Assembly: GCF_004010195.1 (NCBI RefSeq)
Contig: NC_057718.1
Coordinates: 83,372,503 to 83,436,502 of the forward strand
Reading direction: 5' to 3'
Source: Chiloscyllium plagiosum
Lineage: Eukaryota
DNA: 64,000 bases
How positions within the stretch are numbered: position 1 is the first letter of the stretch; each line of letters begins with the position of its first letter. Position numbers and translations under genes: made by a program. The notes beneath the pieces are model-generated. The model was given only the letters and a program-made list of their open reading frames with translations. It was not told the origin of the DNA and searched no databases. Positions 4,235 through 64,000 of the stretch are shown here, in pieces.

Positions 4235-4297
4235 CAGATTAGGTCTTGCTGTGTAGTATATCTCTTCTGAAATGTCCAAAAAATCATCACAGTAGGG
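4235..4297 (-). CDS. MAP4K3: MAP4K3 63-nt exon: PYCDDFLDISEEIYYTARPNL
   Basis: Phase 0/0; acceptor gctgaacag, weak donor CTG|gtattt; matches recalled human PDSDGFLDSSEEIYYTARSNL. Confidence 0.9.
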
Positions 4298-4919
4298 CTG
4301 TTCAGCAGATAAAGACCAGAAAACCCGTTACTTATAACAAACCCAAGAACAAAGTAAGGGCAAGCATTTTCTATTTGGTTTGTCTTGAACATAATTATTC
4401 TACCACAAATGACATTGAGAACTAAATATTTGCATTATTTACATCTGAGGGAAAAGAAGCCAGATATTTCTTATTCAAGACTCATTTAGTTTTAATTTTG
4501 TAGAAATTACAACAAATACATGACTATCATATTAGAATATAGAAATTTATTTTCACATTGCAAGTAAACATGAAGAAATGCCCAAGTAGGATTAGGCAGT
4601 AAGCACTTCTTTTACTTGGACTGTGTCTTAAAAATAAACCTAGACAACAAAATTTAGCATAACTTTGTATTGCTTGACACATATGGGGAGCACACAGCTT
4701 AAGGGGTATTCTTAAATCATTATTGTAAGCTTGCAACTGAAAGCAACCTTCAACAGGTTTCAGAAAAACTCAAATTATTCCCATCAGTCAAGAGCTCTTG
4801 TATTTCAACTTTTTAAGATCACTTGTAAATCTAGTAACTTGCCATTTTCCAGTTTTTTTTTAAAAGCAGACTTTTTTTTGTAAAAAAAAATCTAAATAAG
4901 GCAGGAATATCTTACTTAC

Positions 4920-4978
4920 AAGTTCATGATGAGGCTCTGTTTCTTTCCGCATCGGTGGATCAAATTTTATTTGTCCAA
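4920..4978 (-). CDS. MAP4K3: MAP4K3 exon: (F)GQIKFDPPMRKETEPHHEL
   Basis: 59 nt, phase 1/0; acceptor tttgtctgcag, donor CTT|gtaagt. Confidence 0.95.
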
Positions 4979-14350: not shown

Positions 14351-14761
14351 ATGAGGTATATTTATTATAGGAATAGGGAAGAGGATAGTGTCAAACATAA
14401 TGACTCAATAAATATAACAAATATGTAATAGATATGGTGAAGCACAACATTTTGCAGTTATTGATGAACAATTACATTAACTGAATATTACACAAGCAAC
14501 TGAGCATAGACTCACTATGGGATTTGCCACTGGAATTTACTGTAAATTAGAAAGCCAAAATAGCATACTACCTTCTAAAGAGGATCTGGGACCTGTCAGG
14601 GCAGGGTAAGAAACTGTTAATCAAAGTCTTTAATCAAACAGAACTTTCAATCAGTAGTAGAATCTGAAACAGTATAAATTAAACATTGTCACATCAGGTA
14701 CAGAAGATGTCAGAGGTAAAGAAAATAAAATAGATTGAGAGAGAAATAAAAGATAACAGTC

Positions 14762-15770
14762 GGAGACGGTGGTAGTGGAGGGTTGCTTTTTGGACCACAG
14801 GCCTGTCACCAGTGGTGTTCCACAGGGATCAGTTTTGGGCCCTCTTTTGTTTATCATTTATATAAATGATTTGGATGGGAATAAAAAAAGCATGGTTAGT
14901 AAGTTTGCAGATGACACCAAAATTGGTGGCATAGTAGACACTGAAGAAGGTTTTCAAAAATTTTACAAAACGATCTTGATCGTATGGGTCAATGGGCTGA
15001 AAAATGGCAAATGGGAGTACAATCCGGATAAATGCAAGGTATTGCATTTTGGTACACAAACAAAGGTAGGTCTTATACAGTTAATAGTATAGGAGAACAG
15101 AGGGATCTAGGGATGCAGGTACATAATTCTTTGAAGTTTGGGTGGTTAAAAAGGTATTTGGCATGCTTACCTCCATTGCTCAGTCCTTTGAGTATAGGAG
15201 TTGAGAAGTCATGTTGAGTTTGTGCAGGGCATTGGTGGGCCCTCTTCTGGAATACTATTCCCAATTCTGGTCGCCCAGTTATAGGAAGTATATTACTAAG
15301 CTGGAGAGGATTCAGAAGAGATTTACCAGGATGTTGTTGGGTATGGAAGGTTTGAGTTAAAAACAAAGGCTGGATAGGCTAGGACTTTTTCGCTGGAGCT
15401 CGGGAGGTTGAGAGGTGACTTTACAGAAGTTTATAAAATAATGGGGGGGGGGTAGAAGAGTTAATGGTAGTTGGCTTTTACTTGTGATGGGGATTTTCAA
15501 GACTAGGGGGCACATTAAGGTGAGAGGAGAGAGATTTAAAAAAGACACAAAGGTCATTTTTTTTTTAACAAAGGATGGTTTGTGGAATGAACTTCCTGAG
15601 GAAGTAGTGAATTACAATGTTTAAAAGACATTTGGGTAAGTACATGAATCGGAAAAGTTTGGAGGGTTATGTGTCAGGAGCAGGCAGGTGGGACTAGTTT
15701 ATGTTCTGGTTCGAATTATGGACTGATTGGGCTGAAAGGGTCTGCTTCCATGCTGTAAAACTTCATGACG
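14762..15770 (+). mobile_element. CR1 LINE 3' fragment
   Basis: [23 protein letters not shown]...KFADDTKIGG. Confidence 0.9.
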
Positions 15771-16394
15771 AAGTAGGAATTTTATTTTTAAAATCTTTTT
15801 TAGAAGACTGCTATAATTAACATCTGAAGAAATCAGACTCAACACTGACAAAAAACCAAATTCTGCAACAATGGAGTTATTTTGCAGTGAAGAAAACTTT
15901 TAGTGTATTAAGTTACTTGGATGGACAAGTCCTAGCTTACGTGGAAGATTAGTAGGTATACATCAGTGCAAGTACAGAAAGTTGAAATTATTCCAGAGTT
16001 GAATACAGAAATAGCAGAATAGCATAGCTTCTGCAGGTGCAAGGCAACTCAAACAACAATTGGTTCGCTTGTACTTCCATATGTAACCACCAGAAATCTC
16101 AGTCCAATTTACACATCAACACTGGACAGTTATTTTTACAGCGAAATTACATCTAATATTATTCAGTCTTTTATGTAATCAGAAAGAACAAAAAGAAAAC
16201 AACTAGAGACAGGCAATAAATGCTAGCCAGCCAGCAATGCCCATGAAAGAACAAACAAACAAAAAGAAGGAAAAGGACAAATAGTTACGAATTTTGAGAT
16301 TAATAACAAATCTGAAACGCTTTCAAAAGGTGTAGAGTTATTTTATCATTTCCACTTATTGTTAGAATATTCCGAAGGCATATTTGGAACTTAC

Positions 16395-16473
16395 AGTTAA
16401 TCTCAGATCGTGTTCTTTCTTCTCTCACATTCCGGCTAGTAGACTGAATTCGATGAGGAACTGATATTGGCGG
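16395..16473 (-). CDS. MAP4K3: MAP4K3 exon: PPISVPHRIQSTSRNVREERTRSEIN(F)
   Basis: 79 nt, phase 0/1; acceptor ttttcttttcttcag, donor T|gtaagt. Confidence 0.95.
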
Positions 16474-19459
16474 CTGAAGAAAAGAAAATGGTTAAAACTA
16501 TTATGACATTGCTACAGATTGGTTCCATTTGGATAACTTACATTTTTCTGTTTATTACACAAAAGGTACAAAACAGACAATTTTTTGAGTCTGGTTAGTA
16601 TATCTTTTTATTGAGATGTTTTCCTGCAAAACACATGCAATGTGTTATTGAAAAAAACAAGCATGCAAAGAATATCTCTTCCTAACTCTGGGTCATGCCA
16701 TTTACAATATACATTTACTATGAAGCAAAATAGCTGCACATTTAAAGAATAATTGGCATACAGCTTATTTTACCATATTCCTTAATCTTTTGATTATAAT
16801 ATACACTACTTGAGACGCTCTCTCAAAAGGAAAAAGTGGGAAAAACTAGCACTTTTGCAGTTTGACACTAATCTCTACTGACACTTGATGCCTTTCATCA
16901 ATTTTTATAAAGAAAAAGGTAGTCGATGGATGCCATGATTTAATTTAGTCATGTCATAAGAACAGGTTGAAACAACCTTGCAATACACAATAACTAAATT
17001 AACAGTTGAAACACTGATAAAAGCCAAAAAAAAACTAATATGAATTTATCATGTTGATGCTACTTCTAAACTCAAACTCACTTTCCATAAAGCAACACCA
17101 TAAAGTTACAAATAATTTGCCAAAGGTATCCAAGAACTCTTTCACTTGCGAAAAAAGCAGAGATGAAAGATATGAATTAAAAAAAAAATCAAGACTCAGG
17201 TTCTCCCATAGTTCAAATGGTTAAGGCAGTGAGGACCAGTTAAGTTCACATTCAGTGTGTGCAGAGTTAATAAATGTTGGGCCACTGTGATGGCAAGATG
17301 CTGCAATTGGGTTCAGTATCCCATGGCTTGGAAGGGAGAAATCACCTTTGTCATGCGGTGACAAAAGTTGGAAGATATGCTGAGAAAGTATACAAGGTAC
17401 TGAACGGCATGATTGGGTTTGGGTTCCCACCTTCCAGAGTCAAATAATGTTTTTGATCCTCATTTAAGTTGCTTACAGATAATCAATGGGGATTTGAGTG
17501 AGGTGTGACAACGAGCACACAGAACCACAGGTTAACAATGAATAATTGTCCTTGCAATAAGCAAGATGACAACTGAATTGACATGAAATAGAAGAAGAGA
17601 AACTCAGTCATCAAGATGAAAGGAAAGTTAACAATGACAAATTTTTGTGTCCTGACCCTTTCATCAGAGTCCACTGTCAAAAGGTAATAGTTATTTACAG
17701 GCAAGGACTCAAAACTGGAAATTAGCCTTTTATATATTTTAGAGCTCTAATCATATATAAAATTACAATTTGAACTGAATTAAAATAGCTCAGGGGCTAC
17801 ACTGTACACACCAATAGATTTCATTTAAATAATAATTAGTAATGCCGATACATTATTGTGATTATGTTTAGTGATGCTGGTCACACTCAGCAGTTATCGG
17901 AAATAACTAAGTCATCCATGTTAACTATGTTTTCAAAGGGGCAGCAATATCTCATGCAATAAAAATTCTGGAAAAGTGCTGAGTCATAGGATGCGTATCT
18001 CAAAATGCAAGTCAAAACATTGCAGTGTATATTTAAAATCATGTCACACTAAAAAAAACACCAACTTTTATTGGCACTTCAAACTTAAACATTCTACATA
18101 ACTTTCAAGGAGTTTAAAACTGAATTTGCCTATACACATTAATCCTGATAAATCCAGTTCTTCCATATTAGGAGAAGAAAGCTTAAAACTACAAACCTCA
18201 CACTGATACAGAAAAATTAATTTTGGCATGTGCAGCAATCATACATCTTAAACCACGCCTTAAAAAAAAAATCCCAGGTCTCCAAAAAAACAGCAACTAT
18301 TTACTCAGCAATGTTACCAAACGTTCAGGTACAAAAAAAAGCCATCAGTTCTGAGCTACCAACAAGGTACACGTAAAAATAAAAGTTTGTTATTGTTTTT
18401 GAACTTCTTAATATATGTGCAAATCAACACATTGTAAACTGAATAACATTTACAAGGATCTAAATTATAAATTACTTCATTTCACAAATGTTTGAACTTT
18501 GCCCTCTTTGACATTCACCAATTACAAACTGAGACATGTAAAGCTCTCTTGATACCAGTTACCAAATTATGTTATGCATTCAATTCATTCCTAGCTGACC
18601 GCATCAGTGTTGAGGATAAAACTATCCCAGAAATGGCAAAGTTTACAATTTGCTCAAAGCTATTATAAAAATGTAACTGTTTTGATGGAACACTTGAGAA
18701 CTCAGTTCTAAAATCTCTGTGACACAATTAAAAAAGAAACAAATTTAGAAAGTTTCGTTTTTACGAAGAGTCTTCAGCAGTATGCCACACACAGCCCAAT
18801 TTTATCCCTTTTATTACGAGAAATTTCTCAGGAATTTTGGTCCAAATGCTTGAACTCGCTGCAATCTTGTACAATTTACTCTAACATTAATAAACAAGTG
18901 CCTCATTATCTTAATCATTAAAGGTTACAGGATTTGTTTTCACAAACTTAATGTCGACCACTACAGTCATGACGTAATTGTATCAAAATCCGAAGCTTGA
19001 TCTGCACATCATCATCCCTGATTTAGATTTGCATCAAATCTAATTTCAATTCACATTCATAATCATTTCCCAACTGGGTATCAAAGTGTGTCCTTGAGTT
19101 GATAAACTACTTGAATGAAATATAAAGAGACTGAAATAGATAACACAGATCGGGTATCCCTTAACTGCATGTCCAAAAACCGAAAAACAATAAAAAAACT
19201 GAAGGTCTTTTGAAATCTGACCTGAACGAACCTGTAGACACATTACAGGGCACTTTGGAAAACACTGCGTTTGTCCCAAGCAGACCTCCTCAAAAAGGCC
19301 TTAACACTCTGTCCACAGGTCTGTTTGCTTTGGCCCTTTGGGATTAAAAAAAAAGCTTCTCTTTTAAGTCTGTTTGGGCTAAATGACACCATGCCCTCCA
19401 CCGCAAATCCAGGCAAGAGCCCAAAAAAGCTGATTTAGGATATTTTTGCTCATTTCATT

Positions 19460-21415
19460 TTCTCTGCCATTCAATCTTGGCTGATATGTTTCTCAACCCT
19501 ATTCTCCTGCCTTCTCCCCCAGAACCCTTGATCCCATTACTAATGAAGAACCTATTTATCGCTGTTCAAAATGACTTGGTTTTCACAGTCTTCTGCAGCA
19601 ATGAGTTCCACAGATTAACCATCCTCTGCCTGGAAACATTCCTCCCATCTCAGGTCTAAAAGGTCATCCATTAGACCAAGAGCATAAGAGCAGAAGTTAG
19701 GCCTTTTCAGTCCATTGAGTTTGCTCTGCCATTCAATCGTGACTGTTAAATTTCTCATCCCCATTCTTCCGCCCACTCCGTAACCCCTGATCTCCTTGAC
19801 AATCAAGAACCTATTCTGTCTCAGTCTTAAAAACACTCAATGACCTGGATAGAACAGAGCCTTATAGAGCCTGAGAAGTACATCCCTGCTTTTATAATCA
19901 AGTCCTCTCAAAATAAATGCCATCATTGCATCTGCCTTCCTAACTACAGACTGAATCTGCAAGTTTAGCATGAGAATCCTGGACGAGAACCCCCAAGTAT
20001 CTTTGTACTTAAGATTTCTGAATTTTCTCCCCGTTCAGAAAAAACTCCATGCCTCTATTCTATACTCCATCTGCCACTTCATTGCCCACTCTCCTAATCT
20101 GTCCATATCTTTCTGCAGCCTCCACACCTCCTCAATACCACCTGTCCCTCTATCTATCATTGTATTGCAAATTTAGCTAGAATGCCCTCAGTTCCTTCAT
20201 CTAGATCGTTAGTGTATAAACTGAAAAGTTGTGGTCCCATCCCTTCACTCTGAGGCCAGGACCTCGGGTCCTAATCTCTCCTTGTGGAAACATCTTCTCC
20301 ACATCCATTCTATCCAGGTATATAAGTACAAGCTTCAAAAGAGACTGTCTCATCCTTCTAAACTCCATCAAGTACAGTTCCAGACTCCTCAACTTCTCCT
20401 CATATAACAAGCCCTTCATCACTGGAATGTAGGGTATAAACCTCCTCTCCACAATCTTCAATGGCAACACATCCTTCCTTTGATAAAAGGCTCAAAACTG
20501 CTAAATATTCCAAATGAGCTCTCACCAGAGCCTTCTATAGCCTCAGCAGTACATTTCTGCTCGTATTCTATCCCTCTTGAACTGAATGCTAACATTGCAT
20601 TTCCCTTCCTAACTGCCAAATGAACCTGTATGTTAACCTCATAACCTCATACTTTCCAACAATGTATTCCATCTGTCATTTCTTTGCCCAATTGCCTAGC
20701 CTGCCCAAGTCCTTCTGCAGTGCATTTCCCTTCCTAACTGCCAAATGAACCTGTATATTAACCTTGAAAGAATCCTGATCCACAATTCCCCAAGTCCCTT
20801 CATAATTAAGATTTTCTAAGCCTGTCCCAATTCAGAAAACAGGATATACGTCTAGTCTTCCTACGAAAATGCATAACCTCATACTTTCCAACAATGTATT
20901 CCATCTGTCATTTCTTTGCCCAATTGCCTAGCCTGCCCAAGTCCTTCTGCAGTCTCCCTGCTTCTTCAACACTACCTGTCATTCCATCTATCTTTGTGAC
21001 ACCTGCAAACGTAGCTACAATGCCCTCAGTTCCTTCATCCAGATTTTGCATGAATAATATGATTAGTTGTGGTCCCAACACTGACCCCGGCAGAACTCCA
21101 CTAGTCAGTGGCTGCCATCCTGAAAAATACACCTTTATTTCCATTCGTCAGTCAGCCAATCCTCTATAGGTGCCAGTAACGTGTCCCTAACACCACAGAC
21201 TCTTATCGTATTTAGCAGCCTCCTGTGTGGAACCTGGAAATCAAAACAGATCACATTCACTGGCTCTCCTTTGTCTAACTTGGTTGTTACCTCCTCCAAG
21301 AATTCTAAAAGATTGAAAGACATGACCTAGCTTCACAAAGCCGTGTTGACTTCACTACTTAACCATGCACTTCCAAGTATTCCACAATCTCATCCTTAAT
21401 AATGACTCTAAAATC
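19460..21415 (-). mobile_element. Cluster of nested/decayed CR1 fragments
   Basis: YEEKLRSLELY...EFRRMR; SGVLPGSVLGPQL; NLLEFLEEVT. Confidence 0.8.
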
Positions 21416-21613
21416 AATGATCCAAAAATACCTAATCAGACCCACCTAGAAACAGAACATCCCAAGGTTTACCAATAAAGAATTTGCAACCTGTAATCCC
21501 TTTAAGGAAAAGGCAGGCAATGGGAGGTGATGGTTGCACAGTGATAGTACCACTGGGCTAGTAATGCAGGCCCAGGCTAACGATCTGACGACAGCTGACA
21601 GAATTTAACTTTA

Positions 21614-21710
21614 TTCTGGATCAGTGGTGCTGGAAGAGCACAGCAATTCAGGCAGCATCCGAGGACAGGCAAAATCGACGTTTCGGGCAAAAGCCCTTCA
21701 TCAGGACCCT
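21614..21710 (-). mobile_element. 97-bp PLE-derived insert consisting mostly of a hammerhead core plus tail
   Basis: Minus strand CTGATGA-a-gggc-tttt-gccc-GAAACGTC (21677-21704); perfect 14-bp TSD agaatttaacttta at 21600-21613 and 21711-21724. Confidence 0.85.
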
Positions 21711-21736
21711 AGAATTTAACTTTAATTGATTAAAAC

Positions 21737-22847
21737 TGATCTCTCTTGATGGATTACAGAGGTAACAGTGGCTGAAGGACCTGAACTGAAGGGAATTTAT
21801 ATTTGCCAGGAATTGGTGTTGGAGAGACTGTTAGGTCTGAAGGTTGATAAGTCTCCGGGGCCTGATCGTCTACATCCCAGGGTACTGAAGGAGGTGACTC
21901 GAGAAATCACGGATGTGTTGGTGATTATTTTCCAGAGTTCGATAGATTCAGGATCAGTTCCTGCGGATTGGAGGGAGGCTAATGTTGTACCACTTTTTAA
22001 GAAAGGAGCGAGAGAGAAAGCAGGAAATTATCGGCCACTTAGTCTGACCTCAGTGGTGGGAAAGATGCTGGAGTCAATTATAAAGGATGAAATTACGACA
22101 CTTCTGGATAGCAGTAACAGGATAGGTCAGAGTCAGCATGGATTTATGAAGGGGAAATCATGCTTGACTAATCTTCTGGAATTTTTTGAGGATGTAATTC
22201 TGAAGATGGACAAGGGGATATAGAAGATGGTATTAATAGTAACATTAGCAAATTTGCTGATGATACTAAGCTGGGTGGCAGGGTGAAATGTGAGGAGGAT
22301 ATTAGGAGATTACAGGGTGACCTGGACAGGTTAGGTGAGTGGACTGATGCATGGCAGATGCAGTTTAATGTGGATAAATGTATGGTTATCCACTTTGATG
22401 GCAAGAACAGGAAGGCAGATTACTACCTAAATGGAGTCAAGTTAGGTAAAGACTGGGCTTGTATACCCTTGAGTTTAGAAGACAGAGGGGATCTGATTGA
22501 GAGGTATAAGATTATGAAAGGATTGGACACTCTGGAGGCAGGAAACATGTTTCCGCTGATGGGTGAGTCCCAAACCAGAGGACACAGCTTAAAAATAAGG
22601 GGTAGGCCATTTAGGACAGAGATGAGGAGAAACTTCTTCACCCAGAGAGTGGTGGGCGTGTGGAATGCTCTGCCCCAGAAGGCAGTGGAGGCCCAGTTTC
22701 TGGATTAGTTTAAGAAAAAGTTGGATAGAGCTCTCAAGGTTAGTGGAATCAAGGGTTATGGAGATAAGGCAGGAACAGGATACTCATAATGAATGGTGGT
22801 GCAGGCTCGAAGGGCAGAATGGCCTACTCCTGCACCTATTGTCTATC
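21737..22847 (+). mobile_element. CR1 LINE with two internal deletions
   Basis: KSPGPD...NYRPLSLTSVVGK...SQHGFMKGKSCLTNL; TSD gattaaaac at 21728-21736 and 22848-22856. Confidence 0.9.
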
Positions 22848-24914
22848 GATTAAAACCATATTAACATATTCCCATCATCACTGAAAGCATGCAAGTGCTG
22901 TTCCTGGAAATGTTATACTATTCAGCACAGTCCATCTTGATAAGCTTCCTGCTTCCCATAAATCCATCTATCTAGAATGAATATCTATAACTAGTCTCAA
23001 AAATGGAAACCATGAAACCATCAATGATTGTTCTAACAATTCATCTGGCTCACAAATGCATTTTAGGGAGAAATCTGTCACCCTTACCTGGTCTTGCTGA
23101 CATGCAGATCCTAACCCCCAATGTGATTGACTCTCAACTGTCCCCTGAAACGGGCTAGCAAGCCCATTAGTTCAAGGATGGGCAACAAATGTTTGTGTTG
23201 CCAGCAACACCCACATTTAAAGAAATAATTTTTTAAAATTGGAGTATCAAGTATTAAACATGAGTCAAAATAGCCACAGTTTCAGATTTTACAACTTTAC
23301 ATAATTTTTAAAGACTTATAAAGAGGAAAGTGCCAAAAGATGAATTAGAAAGATACCATATCACTTAGTTTTAATTAATGCATGCAAATGAATAAATAAC
23401 GCAATTACGATGACTGAAACAAAGTGATACTGTTGATACCAATATTAAATTATATTTGTTGCCTTTTGGAGTATTTTTTGAGTATATACAGTATGACACT
23501 ACAGCAATACTAAAATTGAAGTTTTTCAACTGATGATTAGTAGCTTCTAATCTTGAGGTCACAATTCACTGACCACTGCTTGCAGAGATATTCCAATTTC
23601 ATTAAGTCAGAATTGCAACATTAGTTGCAGTACTGTAATAACTAACAGAGTTATATATTTTAGGAAAGGGAAGAGGTAGGTCCAAAGAAAACCAATACTT
23701 TGCACCATATCAAATGCACCAAATTCCAGCTGATTGTGACCATGAAAAATTGTCATCCTACTAAATCCCACAGAATTTACATGGAATTAGTTGAGATGGA
23801 TGAACAAAATATTGTGTGGTGATTTCAAAACTGCTAATAAATAGTTAGTATTTCAAAAATAGCATTAACTTTTTTTATTTTATCCAGAAGTTTACACAGT
23901 GGGTCTCAATTAAAATCAATTTTTATGAAAATCAAATACCACAAGTGTCAATAGCTCTCATGTGGCAACTTAGATTTGCAAATTTAAATGATTATTGTGA
24001 AATCAACTACATTATGTACAATTTTTTCCCTTTCTGTCAATAGCAGTAAGCAGATTCCCAAATATTCATTGCTTCAAATTTGAGTTACAAAAATGGCTAT
24101 TATTTTAGCTCAGAACATTTGCAGCCTTCCTAAAGAAGAATATTAATGATGATTTAAGGAAACTTTAAATCTGCAATCCTCCTGATACTTTGCTCCACAC
24201 CTTTAATTAGTTTTATAAAAAGTAATTCAAAGTCACATATTTCTGAGTAAGTAATAGCATATTAGAATTAAAACATTTGCTCCCCACCCTGAAAATAAGT
24301 ATTTGTCTTGAGATGGACCTACAGATCTTTTTAGTCTACAAAGTCAAATCTGGAAAAGCATCTACCTAATTAATAATGCAGATCATTGCATAAACATATT
24401 AGTACATTAAACCCATTACACATACATTCAAATCTCAGTATAGTAATAAAAGCTTAGCAGTTTTTGAAAGTTGACATACCCATCACATTTCATCTGTATG
24501 CAGCAGACTATTATGGCTTGAAACTTTAATATAAACATAGTATGCAGTCCTAGTGAGACTTTAAGCCCGAGATTATGATTTTACTGATTAAGATTACTTT
24601 AGATTTTAATTAGGTGAGATGGCACTGTACTTTTTCATCTTTTTCTAAATAAAGCAAATTGGTAGTAGCGCGGTCAGTACCAAGCTTTTGCAGGTGATAA
24701 GGGTTTTTACAGCAATAGAGCTAGTTAAAAGCATGATCATAGTTATACATCCAGTGTAAACTACTTTAAAAACCTCCTGAATGAATGGATTAGAAGGATG
24801 ATTTTCTGTTTTAAAACAACTGTATATCTGCATTAAGAGGCCAGCGATAATATTAGCCAAATAAGCAAATGTACAGCTGAGGTTAATGGGATGCTTTGCT
24901 GGATATCAAAGTAC

Positions 24915-24989
24915 CTTAGGATGTGCAGCAATACGTGAGACTCGGCGTGCAAGAGGAGAAGCAGGAGAAAAGATCCCTAAAAACTTAAG
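24915..24989 (-). CDS. MAP4K3: Candidate MAP4K3 cassette exon: LKFLGIFSPASPLARRVSRIAAHPK
   Basis: 75 nt, stop-free in the required phase 0/0; long pyrimidine tract ending tctgttcctcccaactcag; donor AAG|gtactt; GC/CpG-richer than its AT-rich flanks, which lack recognisable TEs. Confidence 0.7.
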
Positions 24990-25275
24990 CTGAGTTGGGA
25001 GGAACAGAAAAAAAAAGGAAAACCACAATAAGAGAGTATGTGAATTCATCGATGGATAAAATGGAGTACATGTCAAGAACAAATGAGTGGATGCTATCTT
25101 AATTCACAATTTAAATAGCAAGTTTCACATTCACATTCCAAAATATTAACCACACATATAACCCAAGAGCACCAACATCATGTATGAATCAGACAAATAT
25201 ACGGCATTTTGTGATAAGACTTCTAATTCTGCATAGATTTATAAACAATTAAAAGATTGCCCGTCTAAAATACAG

Positions 25276-25320
25276 ACACACACACACACACACACATACA
25301 TACATATCTCCATACACACA
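25276..25320 (+). repeat. (CA)n/(CATA)n microsatellite
   Basis: Seen directly. Confidence 0.9.
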
Positions 25321-46627: not shown

Positions 46628-46738
46628 CTCTGGATCATCATCATCAACATCATGATAACTGGAATGATCCGGGTTGTTCAACTTATCAAGCAATTCTATA
46701 GCAAGCGTACGATTCAAAGACTGAGCCACAAATGGGTG
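46628..46738 (-). CDS. MAP4K3: MAP4K3 exon, end of kinase domain: HPFVAQSLNRTLAIELLDKLNNPDHSSYHDVDDDDPE
   Basis: 111 nt, phase 0/0; acceptor tttttattttcag, donor GAG|gtaaaa; overlaps ORF-track entry 46526..46729. Confidence 0.96.
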
Positions 46739-46823
46739 CTGAAAATAAAAATTAAAAGTATAAGGGAAGTATTTGAATATTAATGTTCTTAAATAGTAAA
46801 GTCATAAAATGTACTATACTTGC

Positions 46824-46905
46824 CTGCAATAACTTTTCAGCAGTAGGTCTTTTTTTGGGATTTTTCGTAAGTGCCAATTTTACAAACTGATGAAAATTAG
46901 TTGAC
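46824..46905 (-). CDS. MAP4K3: MAP4K3 exon, kinase subdomain XI: (W)[27 protein letters not shown]
   Basis: 82 nt, phase 2/0; acceptor tgtccttttag; non-canonical donor CAG|gcaagt. Confidence 0.95.
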
Positions 46906-46990: not shown

Positions 46991-47053
46991 CATTTTATTT
47001 TGTCCTTCAATTTTGGAGGCTGGAAGTTGCTCTTTGTCATCAAAAACAAAGCT
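46991..47053 (-). CDS. MAP4K3: MAP4K3 exon, kinase subdomain X region: (R)ALFLMTKSNFQPPKLKDKIK(W)
   Basis: 63 nt, phase 2/2; acceptor tctttttcttttcag, donor TG|gtatga. Confidence 0.95.
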
Positions 47054-60479: not shown

Positions 60480-63400
60480 ATGCAATGCCATCATGGATAG
60501 CAAATCTAGAGTCAGGCATAGCTACCCTCTTTACCTTGTCCTATTGAAATCTTAAGCCGATTCCATCAGAAAGGTGCTGGCATAAGAGGGGTGACAAAGA
60601 CCAAATAGTGGAGTCATTCAGTCAAATGCCTCCCTACACATGGACAATATCACCACCTTCTGCTTGGATCCATTATGCATTGACTGAGTAGCACCAGTTC
60701 AATCTGACCTCAGTCAAAACACATCGAAGCAAGAGCCAGACAACCTGAAGGTGCTGGCAATAAAGGTGAGCAGTGCGCATAAAAAATAACTGGAAGGAGC
60801 AAGTACTCATGGTCAAACAAAAACCAAACATGTCAAAGCAAGACTCCTTCTCCACTACGTGTGTGAGGAAGACCATCAGGTGTATGGCACTCAGTGTTGC
60901 TGTACAGATCTGGCCTATTCTCATCTGAACTACAATTTGCTTTACCTGGAAGTCAAACTGGACTATGTTCACAGGGACATGATGCATTAACCTCTAGATA
61001 AAGGGGTACATGTGGCCAGAATGAGGAAGTTTTGTTAAGTTTATAGCTATGCATAGAAACTCCTTATACAAGTGTTTAGAAGGAGAACAGGGAAAATACC
61101 ATTATCCACACCCAAGTGGGCATGCTGAGGTCTTACCTGTTACCCAATGTTGCAAAGAATTTGTCTTGCCATGTTGACACAGAACCCTTCAAGTGTTTGA
61201 GTCATATTGCATCACTTGCCCTTTGTGGAGGAGATTCTATAGAAAAACACTTTTGACCACAAATCCATCAGGCAGTGGTCAGCATATAGCATACAAGATC
61301 TTATAGGAAAAATAAATGGTTCCCCATTGTGGTGAAACGGTTAAAAATTATGTCCCAATACATGTGTGAATCATAATGTAACACATGTATTGGGCCAAGC
61401 AATGGAACATATAGCATACAAGATCTTATAGGAAAAATAAATGGTTCCCCATGCAGACTATTAGTCACCTGGTAGAATGCCTCAGTGCCAGAACTTATAA
61501 CCAAGCACCAAGACACAGTGGTAAAAAAGGCCCTCAGATCATTCCTCTGTGACTGGAGCCTAGCCCTTTTTGCACATTACTCTTGAGGTGGCTGGGATGG
61601 GGAAGAGACAGTCATCTACATCCATGTGGACAAAAAATCTGAAAGAAAATCTAGAAGGAGATACAATAGTGTTTGTTCAGCTTTATCCTAAGCAGCTCCA
61701 TGACACAGGGTTCTATGCTCTATGGGTTCACATTGTGATAAACATCTCTTTTTATTTCAAAAAATGTATTTTATTCATAAAATATTCTGATGATCTGTAC
61801 AATTGGTCACGCCATACATACGCAAACATCCCATTTCTTTGCATACAGAGATAGAGTAATCATTCGTATATACAGGTCTGTACGTTTACCATATATCCAT
61901 ATGTTTAGCTGAGGCGTCAGCGGAGCCCACTTACTGCGTGGGCCCCCTGTTCTTTGGCAGGCAGATGTTACACGGTGGTCTTGCCCCACCGCACCTTGGC
62001 GGCAGTTGCCCCAAGCTTCAGCACGTCCCTCAACACAGTCCTGGATCTTGGAATGTGCCAGTCCACAACACTCAGTCGGGGTCAGCTCCTTCAGCTGGAA
62101 GATCAACAGGTTTCAGACAGACCAAAGAGCTTCTTTCACCGAGTTGATGATCGTCTCGGTGTGTGTCCTGGAGAACAGACCGTGAGTCCCGCGTCACGGA
62201 GCTGCTTGGGACGAACCTCGACAAACACTCGTCTCCAGACTTCCTTTGCATAGGCACATTTCAGAAGGAGGTGTGAGACAGTCTCGTCCCCTCCGCAGCC
62301 ACTTCGAGGGCAGCATGCGGTGCGGCAGAGAGTCCGGCGTGCGTAAAGGATCTCACAGGCAGAGCCCTTCTCACCACCACCATGTCTTGGTGCGTGTTGG
62401 AAAGTTCTGGTGATGAGGCATTCTGCCAAATGACTGACAGTCTGCTCAGGGAACTGCTCGACAGGATCTGCTCTTTCCTTTTCCCAAAGGGTCTCAAGGA
62501 CACTGTGCTGACCACTTCCTGATGGACCTGTGGTCAAAGGTGTTTTTCTTCATAAACTTCTCTATGAAGGACAGGTGATACGGAACGGTCCAACTACTTG
62601 GAGCCTTCAGTGACAGCGAGGCCAGGCCCATCCTTCACAACACCGGGGACAGGAACCTCAGTACATAGTGACATTTTGTGTTTGCGTACTGGGGATCAAT
62701 GCACAGCTCGCTGCAGCCACAAACAAAGGTAGCTATCAGGGTGAGGAAGGCATTTGGCGTGTTTTTCCCCCCGTTGCCCAGAGCTTTGTACATCGAGTCC
62801 CTTCGGACCCTGGCCATCTTTCCTCTCTATACAAAATGGAAGATGGCCCAGGTGACTGCGACGGCACAGGTTCTGCGAATAGGCCAGACCTGTGCCACAT
62901 ATAACAACACTGACAGTGCCTCACACCTGATGACCAGGTTTTTTCCCGCGATGGAGAGCGACCGTAGCTTCCATCTGCCCAGTTTCTGCCTCACCTTGCT
63001 GATACGCTCACCCAAGACTTGGCGCACGCCTCAGCCCCTCCGAACCAAATACGCAGCACCTTCAGGTGGTCGGTCCTGATGGTGAAGGGGAGCGAGGATT
63101 GGTCGGCCCAGTTCCCGGAGAGCATGGCCTCGCTCTTGCCTCAGTTTACCTTGGCCCCCGAGGCCCGTTCGAACTGGTCACCAATGCACAAGAGTCTGTG
63201 CATGGACAGCGGATCAAAGCAGAAAATGGCGACGTCATCCATGTACAGGGAGGCATTAACCTACAGGCCCTCCGCTGCCAGGAATAGTCACCCCTCTCAG
63301 GCTCGCATCCTTCCTGATGGACTCGGCAAATGGCTCTATGCAGCACACAAACAAGACAGGAGACAGAGGGCAGCCCTGCCTGACTCCAGATCTGACTGGG

Positions 63401-63785
63401 AAGCTATCTGATTCCCACCCATTGATTGAGACTGCACTGACAATGTTGGTGTAGAGCAGTCTGATCCAATTACAGATTCCCTCCCCAAAGCCCATTTTGG
63501 AGATAATATCTCTCATATACATATGTGATATCCTGTCAAAGGCTTTCTCCTGGTCCAGGCTGATGAGGCAGGTGTCCAACCCCCTGTCCTGCACGTAGAC
63601 AATTGTATCCCTGAGGAGTGAGAGACTCTCAGCGATCTTCCTGCCCAGTACAGCACAGGTTTGGTCAGGGTGAATCACCAATCCCAGAGCAGACCTGACC
63701 CGGTTGGCGATGACCTTTGCACCGGAAGGGCCACTAACTCTGGTGCAAGCTGTTCTTTGGTCTGCCCAAAATTTGCTGGTCTTAA
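60480..63785 (+). mobile_element. Old decayed Tx1-like ORF2 (60480-~61746, resuming ~63720-63785), host of a younger antisense Tx1
   Basis: gaaaaacacttttgaccacaaatccatcaggcagtggtcagca at 61242-61284 is the diverged reverse complement of 62506-62550; collinearity resumes after 63720. Confidence 0.75.
61749..63720 (-). mobile_element. Younger Tx1-like element: RT, C-terminal Cys/His motif, 3' UTR; 5'-truncated and frameshifted
   Basis: VIHPDQTC...SLDQEKAFDRISH...GVRQGCPLSP; LYMDDV; CPRSGCGGDETVSHLLLKC; minus-strand AATAAA motifs and A-rich end at ~61749-61776. Confidence 0.92.
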
Positions 63786-64000
63786 ATTAAAGTAGTAACT
63801 CTTGAGTCAGTGTTGCAGATTGACACATCCCATGGTCCAGTATTATGTGCTGAGGGATGTACTAAAGTTCCAAGCAAATGCCCAAGTGGTGAAGTGTCAC
63901 TAACTAAGATCTTTCAGCCATAGTACACTGAGCAGATGTAAGTTATAGAACACCAGCCACCATTGTATTAAGCAAAATATTTCTTTTATTTTAACAAATG

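Follow-up and report, generated by a model that had tools for sequence, protein, structure and literature searches.

A 75-nucleotide cassette exon behind the kinase domain of MAP4K3, present from sharks to frogs and probably lost in amniotes

The window, a stretch of 64,000 nucleotides from Chiloscyllium plagiosum, carries on its minus strand a part of the gene for MAP4K3 (GLK), running from exons of the kinase domain into the linker between the kinase and CNH domains. Within the window this linker has three or more optional exons, including the 75-nucleotide cassette exon described here. The features are, in the order of transcription:

46991–47053, minus strand, kinase-domain exon
46824–46905, minus strand, kinase-domain exon with a GC donor
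46628–46738, minus strand, upstream exon with the end of the kinase domain and its acidic tail; ends in phase 0 at 46628, followed by a 21,638-nt intron up to the cassette
24990–25093, minus strand, acceptor region of the cassette (CAG plus AG-exclusion zone)
24915–24989, minus strand, MAP4K3 cassette exon, 75 nt, in-frame, 25 residues, phase 0-0; window sequence, with an identical peptide in proteins P0003, P0004 and P0246
24909–24914, minus strand, cassette donor GTACTT
16395–16473, minus strand, downstream exon; starts in phase 0 at 16473, after an 8,441-nt intron from the cassette
14572–14592, minus strand, optional in-frame microexon of 21 nt in the linker, CAG ... AAG/GTAGTA; in C. plagiosum isoform P0003, missing from P0004
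4920–4978, minus strand, linker exon
4235–4297, minus strand, optional linker exon of 63 nt, tyrosine-bearing (YY pair)

Read from 24989 to 24915 on the minus strand, the cassette translates without a stop across its 75 nucleotides into the peptide LKFLGIFSPASPLARRVSRIAAHPK. Its acceptor is CAG and its donor AAG/GTACTT, and AG and GT borders, a length divisible by three and matching phases are all present. A first-pass annotation made from the letters alone had proposed this exon; its coordinates, strand, length, phase and translation agree with the window sequence and with annotated isoforms, and the flanking ends that it had named, 46628 and 16473, are exon borders, both in phase 0. The acceptor, which is CAG, and the AAG/GT donor that it had called also hold, although the donor GTACTT departs from consensus at +4 and +5. 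When the exons of the window are spliced by script, the product with the cassette is contained without any mismatch in P0003, P0004 and P0246, while the product without it is contained in the same way in 11 other carpet-shark proteins. Two C. plagiosum MAP4K3 isoforms predicted by RefSeq, XP_043552307.1 and XP_043552296.1, match letter for letter in peptide and junction, so the exon is already annotated and not, as it had first been described, hidden. Among RefSeq/UniRef isoforms, XP_031757414.1 (Xenopus tropicalis) and XP_064411900.1 (Latimeria) contain the same exon with the same borders. All four are automatic models, which come without a described function, tissue or history; RefSeq isoform models of this kind generally rest on RNA-seq support. 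The cassette is thus an already annotated, ordinary kind of alternative exon, found in automatic annotations from sharks to frogs, and the exon, its frame, its conservation and both of its isoforms can be read directly from gene models. A published description of it was not found in the literature covered, of which subscription journals form a small part.

Splice signals alone single out the cassette no better than chance. A simple splice-signal scan gave six candidates on the minus strand, three of them true, and four on the plus strand, and recovered two of the eight real exons. The comparable patterns on the plus strand would suit a chance pseudo-exon in the 30-kb intron, but this reading, to which we give practically no weight, is refuted: the cassette matches annotated isoforms exactly, and its position, length and sequence are conserved all the way from chimaera to frogs. 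What lifts the cassette above chance is that public predicted proteins carry precisely this peptide at precisely this junction, together with a position and length kept in relatives. That it is a real exon is virtually certain, and it is very probably alternatively spliced. The evidence for inclusion is second-hand, consisting of predicted protein models. Of 18 runs checked for positions 24860–25060, none of those matching is recorded as RNA. Four of the 18 were mapped to positions 14400–25300, a range that leaves the upstream junction, more than 20 kb away, outside; the cassette and its junction received no reads, and coverage of real exons was also near zero. Two of these runs were raw single-cell data, sampled at about 2% and about 6%, of which one yielded 502 mapped reads, nearly all on repeats, and the other none; two were contig sets that look DNA-like. 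A poison exon leading to NMD is ruled out because no spliced form contains a stop, and an Srrm3/4-dependent neural microexon because 75 nucleotides exceed the limit for that class, given in abstracts as 27 nucleotides or fewer.

Among 290 fetched proteins the cassette peptide is present in 164 and skipped in 110; the other 16, which extend into the intron or are without the next exon, show neither form and were excluded from this count. The carriers are sharks, rays, chimaera, paddlefish, gar, reedfish, teleosts, coelacanth, caecilian and frogs. With the upstream exon as query, MAP4K3 of sharks, rays, amphibians and turtles was retrieved (best 120 of 128 matches). The caecilian cassette region as query brought in chimaera, paddlefish, reedfish and coelacanth (39 of 43 candidates), and a profile of ten cassettes with their flanks extended the range to gar and teleosts, zebrafish included (best 120 of 216 matches). 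Each of the latter 120 matches contains the cassette, and 49 species are represented by name. The teleost MAP4K3 models do contain the insert that the first-pass annotation had suggested for them. In 42 species tabulated by hand, the predicted proteins show both forms in 19, inclusion only in four and skipping only in 19. All three forms fetched for C. plagiosum, which matches the window most closely, include the cassette, so skipping in this species is deduced from close relatives. Eight further spliced proteins from assemblies all skip it. A HMMER search of 1.84 billion 50%-representatives gave 11 matches: one frog protein, eight genomic read-through ORFs with a peptide equal or nearly equal to the teleost form, and two chance matches in repetitive proteins (P0294 and P0300), which were dropped. 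In the eight ORFs, the cassette is preceded by Q (seven) or K (one) and always followed by V, as expected if their AG and GT borders lie where they do in the window; one of them carries the upstream exon 133 codons ahead of the cassette.

In other cartilaginous fishes the frame and position of the exon are conserved, with the same borders and the 25-residue length that is kept in 23 of 24 distinct peptides overall. The spread of included and skipped forms in predicted models across jawed vertebrates agrees with the earlier idea of an ancestral cassette, and supports an exon ancestral to jawed vertebrates that has been retained by cartilaginous fish, ray-finned fish, coelacanth and amphibians. 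Lamprey, hagfish, lungfish and salamander are not named in any of the match lists. Among frogs, skipping is seen in every model fetched for Lithobates, Rana, Hyperolius and Pyxicephalus (P0074–P0076, P0084, P0098, P0106–P0109, P0120 and P0122), unlike those of hylid, bufonid, pipid and other frogs, which include it; this skip-only group may reflect sampling or a second loss.

No reptile, bird or mammal protein with the cassette was seen among the protein models and cluster representatives searched. The 120 best of the 216 profile matches come from 49 species, none of them an amniote; the 39 matches of the caecilian-cassette search contain none either, and none is recognisable among the 11 HMMER matches. 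In the human construct of PDB entry 5J5T the acidic tail is joined directly to the next exon, as had been said of the human protein. Skip forms score about 20 bits against the profile, while the best 120 of 216 matches ended at 78 bits; in 30 trials with a frog cassette, 97% still came up to this score after eight random substitutions, and 10% after 12. An amniote exon under similar constraint should therefore have been listed. Absence from amniotes is likely on this evidence, which comes from protein models, from the best 120 of 216 profile matches as cluster representatives, and from a database in which turtles are the amniotes confirmed by name, birds and mammals not being so confirmed. The loss may then be amniote-wide and probably fell on the amniote stem; the first-pass suggestion of a loss in mammals fits the human protein and is probably too narrow, bird and reptile proteins with the cassette being equally missing. 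The opposite reading, in which some or all amniotes still have the exon in an unannotated or diverged form, or mammals alone have lost it, draws on the 19 of 42 anamniote species that likewise have skip-only models, because of which an exon missing from models may often still exist, and on the use of protein models rather than intron DNA. Against it, at least 12 of the 25 residues would have to have diverged from the frog form before the exon dropped below the list's score in the majority of trials, and we regard such survival as fairly improbable. A metagenome scan for host DNA gave 549 pattern matches, none of which was confirmed.

Of the 24 distinct cassette peptides, 23 have 25 residues and one has 26. 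The opening (F/L)-K-(F/Y)-x-G-x-F and the motif P-x-S/T-P at positions 9–12 occur in all 24, FAA in 23 and RR in 22, and D and E are absent throughout. Residues K2, G5, F7, P9, S/T11, P12, A21, A22 and K25 are fixed in the 23 peptides of standard length. The first SP is found in 15 of the 24, being missing in teleosts and reedfish, and RRxS in two, both from carpet sharks, so that RRxS as a conserved basophilic site is rejected. Thus the basic character noted in the first-pass annotation stands, while the RRxS motif and the first SP that it had pointed out do not hold as conserved features. The CDK consensus is S/T-P-x-R/K, and a site of this kind, found in none of the 24 peptides, is likewise rejected. 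The invariant motif has the form Pro-X-Ser/Thr-Pro, the usual ERK site (PMC6627365), in every peptide. The net charge of the cassette is +5 and that of the adjoining acidic tail of the kinase –6. Between the sawshark and frog, caecilian, coelacanth and paddlefish, cassette identity is 84%, compared with 47–83% for three later linker segments; conservation of the cassette is close to that of the next exon and mostly higher than that of the later linker. Identity to bony vertebrates is 52–76% for the cassette of the window and 60–84% for that of the sawshark, and judged by these values the version in the window is a derived one. An AlphaFold2 model from a 40-row alignment has a mean pLDDT of 29.

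The acceptor of the cassette differs from the seven others in the window. Its AG-exclusion zone measures 102 nucleotides, against 14–47 nucleotides for the others, and the 100 nucleotides upstream of it are 74% pyrimidine, against 54–58%. Only 5 of the 1,310 YAGs in the gene span have an AG-free gap of at least 100 nucleotides. Candidate branch-point-like words are located at –95, –84, –68, –52 and –40. With 102 nucleotides and a pyrimidine tract, the acceptor has the zone that marks candidates for the distant-branch-point class (at least 100 nucleotides plus pyrimidine tract). In Gooding et al. 2006 (PMC1431707), 838 of 67,334 human exons have a zone of at least 100 nucleotides and are more often alternative, the few tested exons with distant branch points are regulated by PTB, and a true distant branch point is estimated for only half to a fifth of large zones. 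The cassette resembles these exons in its zone length, its pyrimidine richness, a branch-like word near the 5' end and its alternative use, although 102 nucleotides lie at the low edge of the class and its own branch point and PTB control are putative. In eight fish ORFs, 53–77% of the 60 residues before the cassette are F, L, S or P, compared with 17–31% after it; this skew, read from amino acids and not from DNA, fits a conserved pyrimidine-rich zone and suggests that the zone is conserved in fish. The intron just 3' of the fish cassette encodes similar residues in seven ORFs (P0293, P0295–P0299 and P0301), which suggests conserved regulatory sequence after the donor. A count of nine splicing-factor motifs over both flanks of six exons gave best nominal p values of 0.02–0.05, none of which survives the number of tests.

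Published zebrafish splicing data offer indirect hints on regulation. In the supplement of PMC12626424, the only map4k3b entry in a 709-row table of neural exons is a 54-nucleotide exon. This linker exon, DreEX0044735, is neural-enriched in zebrafish with a dPSI of 50.5 and unregulated in human (PMC12626424), so control of linker splicing differs between the lineages. The VastDB event DreEX0044717, listed in the same supplement (PMC12626424) as a zebrafish exon of 75 nucleotides, has class 'AS', is not neural and shows a dPSI of 3.37 upon Srrm3/4 loss. It has the length of the cassette and is numbered just ahead of a 63-nucleotide event and the named map4k3b event; the table gives it no gene name, and by numbering and length it may be the zebrafish cassette. 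These entries hint indirectly that the cassette is not neural-enriched in zebrafish; the tissue regulation proposed in the first-pass annotation is plausible. A 75-nucleotide exon named as map4k3 was not found in the accessible supplements of PMC5703972, PMC12626424, PMC13281805, PMC9770155 and PMC9303857. Like the 63-nucleotide and 54-nucleotide linker exons, the cassette is an in-frame module between the kinase and CNH domains; the 54-nucleotide exon has a human counterpart, whereas the cassette occurs in no amniote protein seen and is the one nearest to the kinase domain.

We propose, with somewhat better than an even chance of being right, that this is a genuine MAP4K3 cassette, ancestral to jawed vertebrates, probably lost on the amniote stem, and encoding a regulated linker insert with a phosphosite. 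The weak donor and the extended AG-free pyrimidine zone, a candidate distant branch-point and repressor-binding region, would make skipping the default, with inclusion in some non-neural tissue or stage. Inclusion would place a basic, acid-free segment directly behind the acidic tail of the kinase. As the invariant P-x-S/T-P has the form of proline-directed sites used by kinases of the ERK/MAPK type, the included isoform would gain a phosphorylation-controlled switch in an unstructured linker, through which MAPKs might feed back on MAP4K3, their upstream activator. MAP4K3 activates JNK (PMC6806545). Whether the phosphosite is the main function of the cassette we hold to be an evenly balanced question. 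Against it, proline-rich linkers often contain such motifs, and a phosphosite alone would leave the fixed F/K/G/F and FAA residues unexplained. The fuller version of the proposal, in which the regulated exon with its unusual acceptor was kept in every sampled major anamniote lineage and lost once on the amniote stem, with a MAPK feedback site beside the acidic tail, is put forward tentatively.

The same peptide might instead work by contact, its aromatic amino-terminal half or its RR..RFAA half folding onto the kinase, or the segment neutralising the acidic tail, and thereby tune activity or dimer contacts. Its insertion directly behind the tail, the opposite net charges and the fixed residues K2, G5, F7, A21 and A22, which go beyond the needs of a phosphosite, speak for this; so does the 5J5T crystal, in which the acidic tail reportedly binds a groove of a neighbouring kinase molecule. 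Position 4, however, can be R, W, F or L, more freedom than a buried docking motif would be expected to allow, and we consider the contact reading unlikely. A motif for localisation or partner binding, whether a basic-aromatic membrane anchor, an import signal or a MAPK docking site across the junction with the next exon, is distinctly unlikely in our view. In its favour, 20 peptides have four to eight K or R and no acidic residue, and of 25 junction variants 20 show a degenerate MAPK-docking pattern across the border with the downstream exon; this pattern is very permissive, its count has no background control, and neither the window's own sequence nor that of chimaera matches it, while an ESM Atlas feature search with the cassette gave no usable match. 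Read-through past the weak donor offers another role, in which the cassette matters mainly as a composite last exon of a kinase-only protein: two intronic codons are followed by an in-frame stop, and ATTAAA words lie 305 and 385 nucleotides downstream. Such words are frequent in AT-rich introns, however, the inclusion models counted all run on into the next exon, and the stop is not conserved, because the read-through frames of fish continue for 13 to at least 60 codons; this role is very improbable.

As an annotation the cassette is ordinary, and its value is evolutionary and practical. What has so far gone undescribed is how the exon is spread across anamniotes, that amniotes have likely lost it, that a single proline-directed site is invariant and that a long AG-free zone precedes the acceptor. 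MAP4K3 has been studied in human autoimmunity, cancer and ageing (PMC6806545), and the cassette is a well-conserved optional module beside the catalytic domain of this medically studied kinase, seemingly absent in amniotes. Studies of MAP4K3 that use zebrafish or Xenopus may for that reason deal with an isoform not made in humans. If the proposal is correct, a JNK and mTORC1 activator receives in fish and amphibian cells a splice-controlled input that is missing in reptiles, birds and mammals. An exon loss that is clean and datable, with one invariant candidate phosphosite, lends itself readily to testing.

Other parts of the locus deserve brief description. The 85-nucleotide kinase-domain intron at 46739–46823 (minus strand) has the GC donor CAG/GCAAGT. 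The upstream flank of the microexon at 14572–14592 (minus strand) is rich in pyrimidines, and the 63-nucleotide exon at 4235–4297 (minus strand) varies between inclusion and skipping in models of sharks, fish and amphibians. Directly after the exon at 4978–4920, at its donor, positions 4911–4919 (minus strand) read GTAAGTAAG, whose translation gives the three extra residues of the Carcharodon and Cetorhinus models; the extension has no donor in the window, because AT and not GT comes next. High-copy intronic repeats with very high read depth are located among 14764–15855, 19132–23135 and 63256–63786, and an ORF among these regions resembles what we take to be a LINE reverse-transcriptase fragment.
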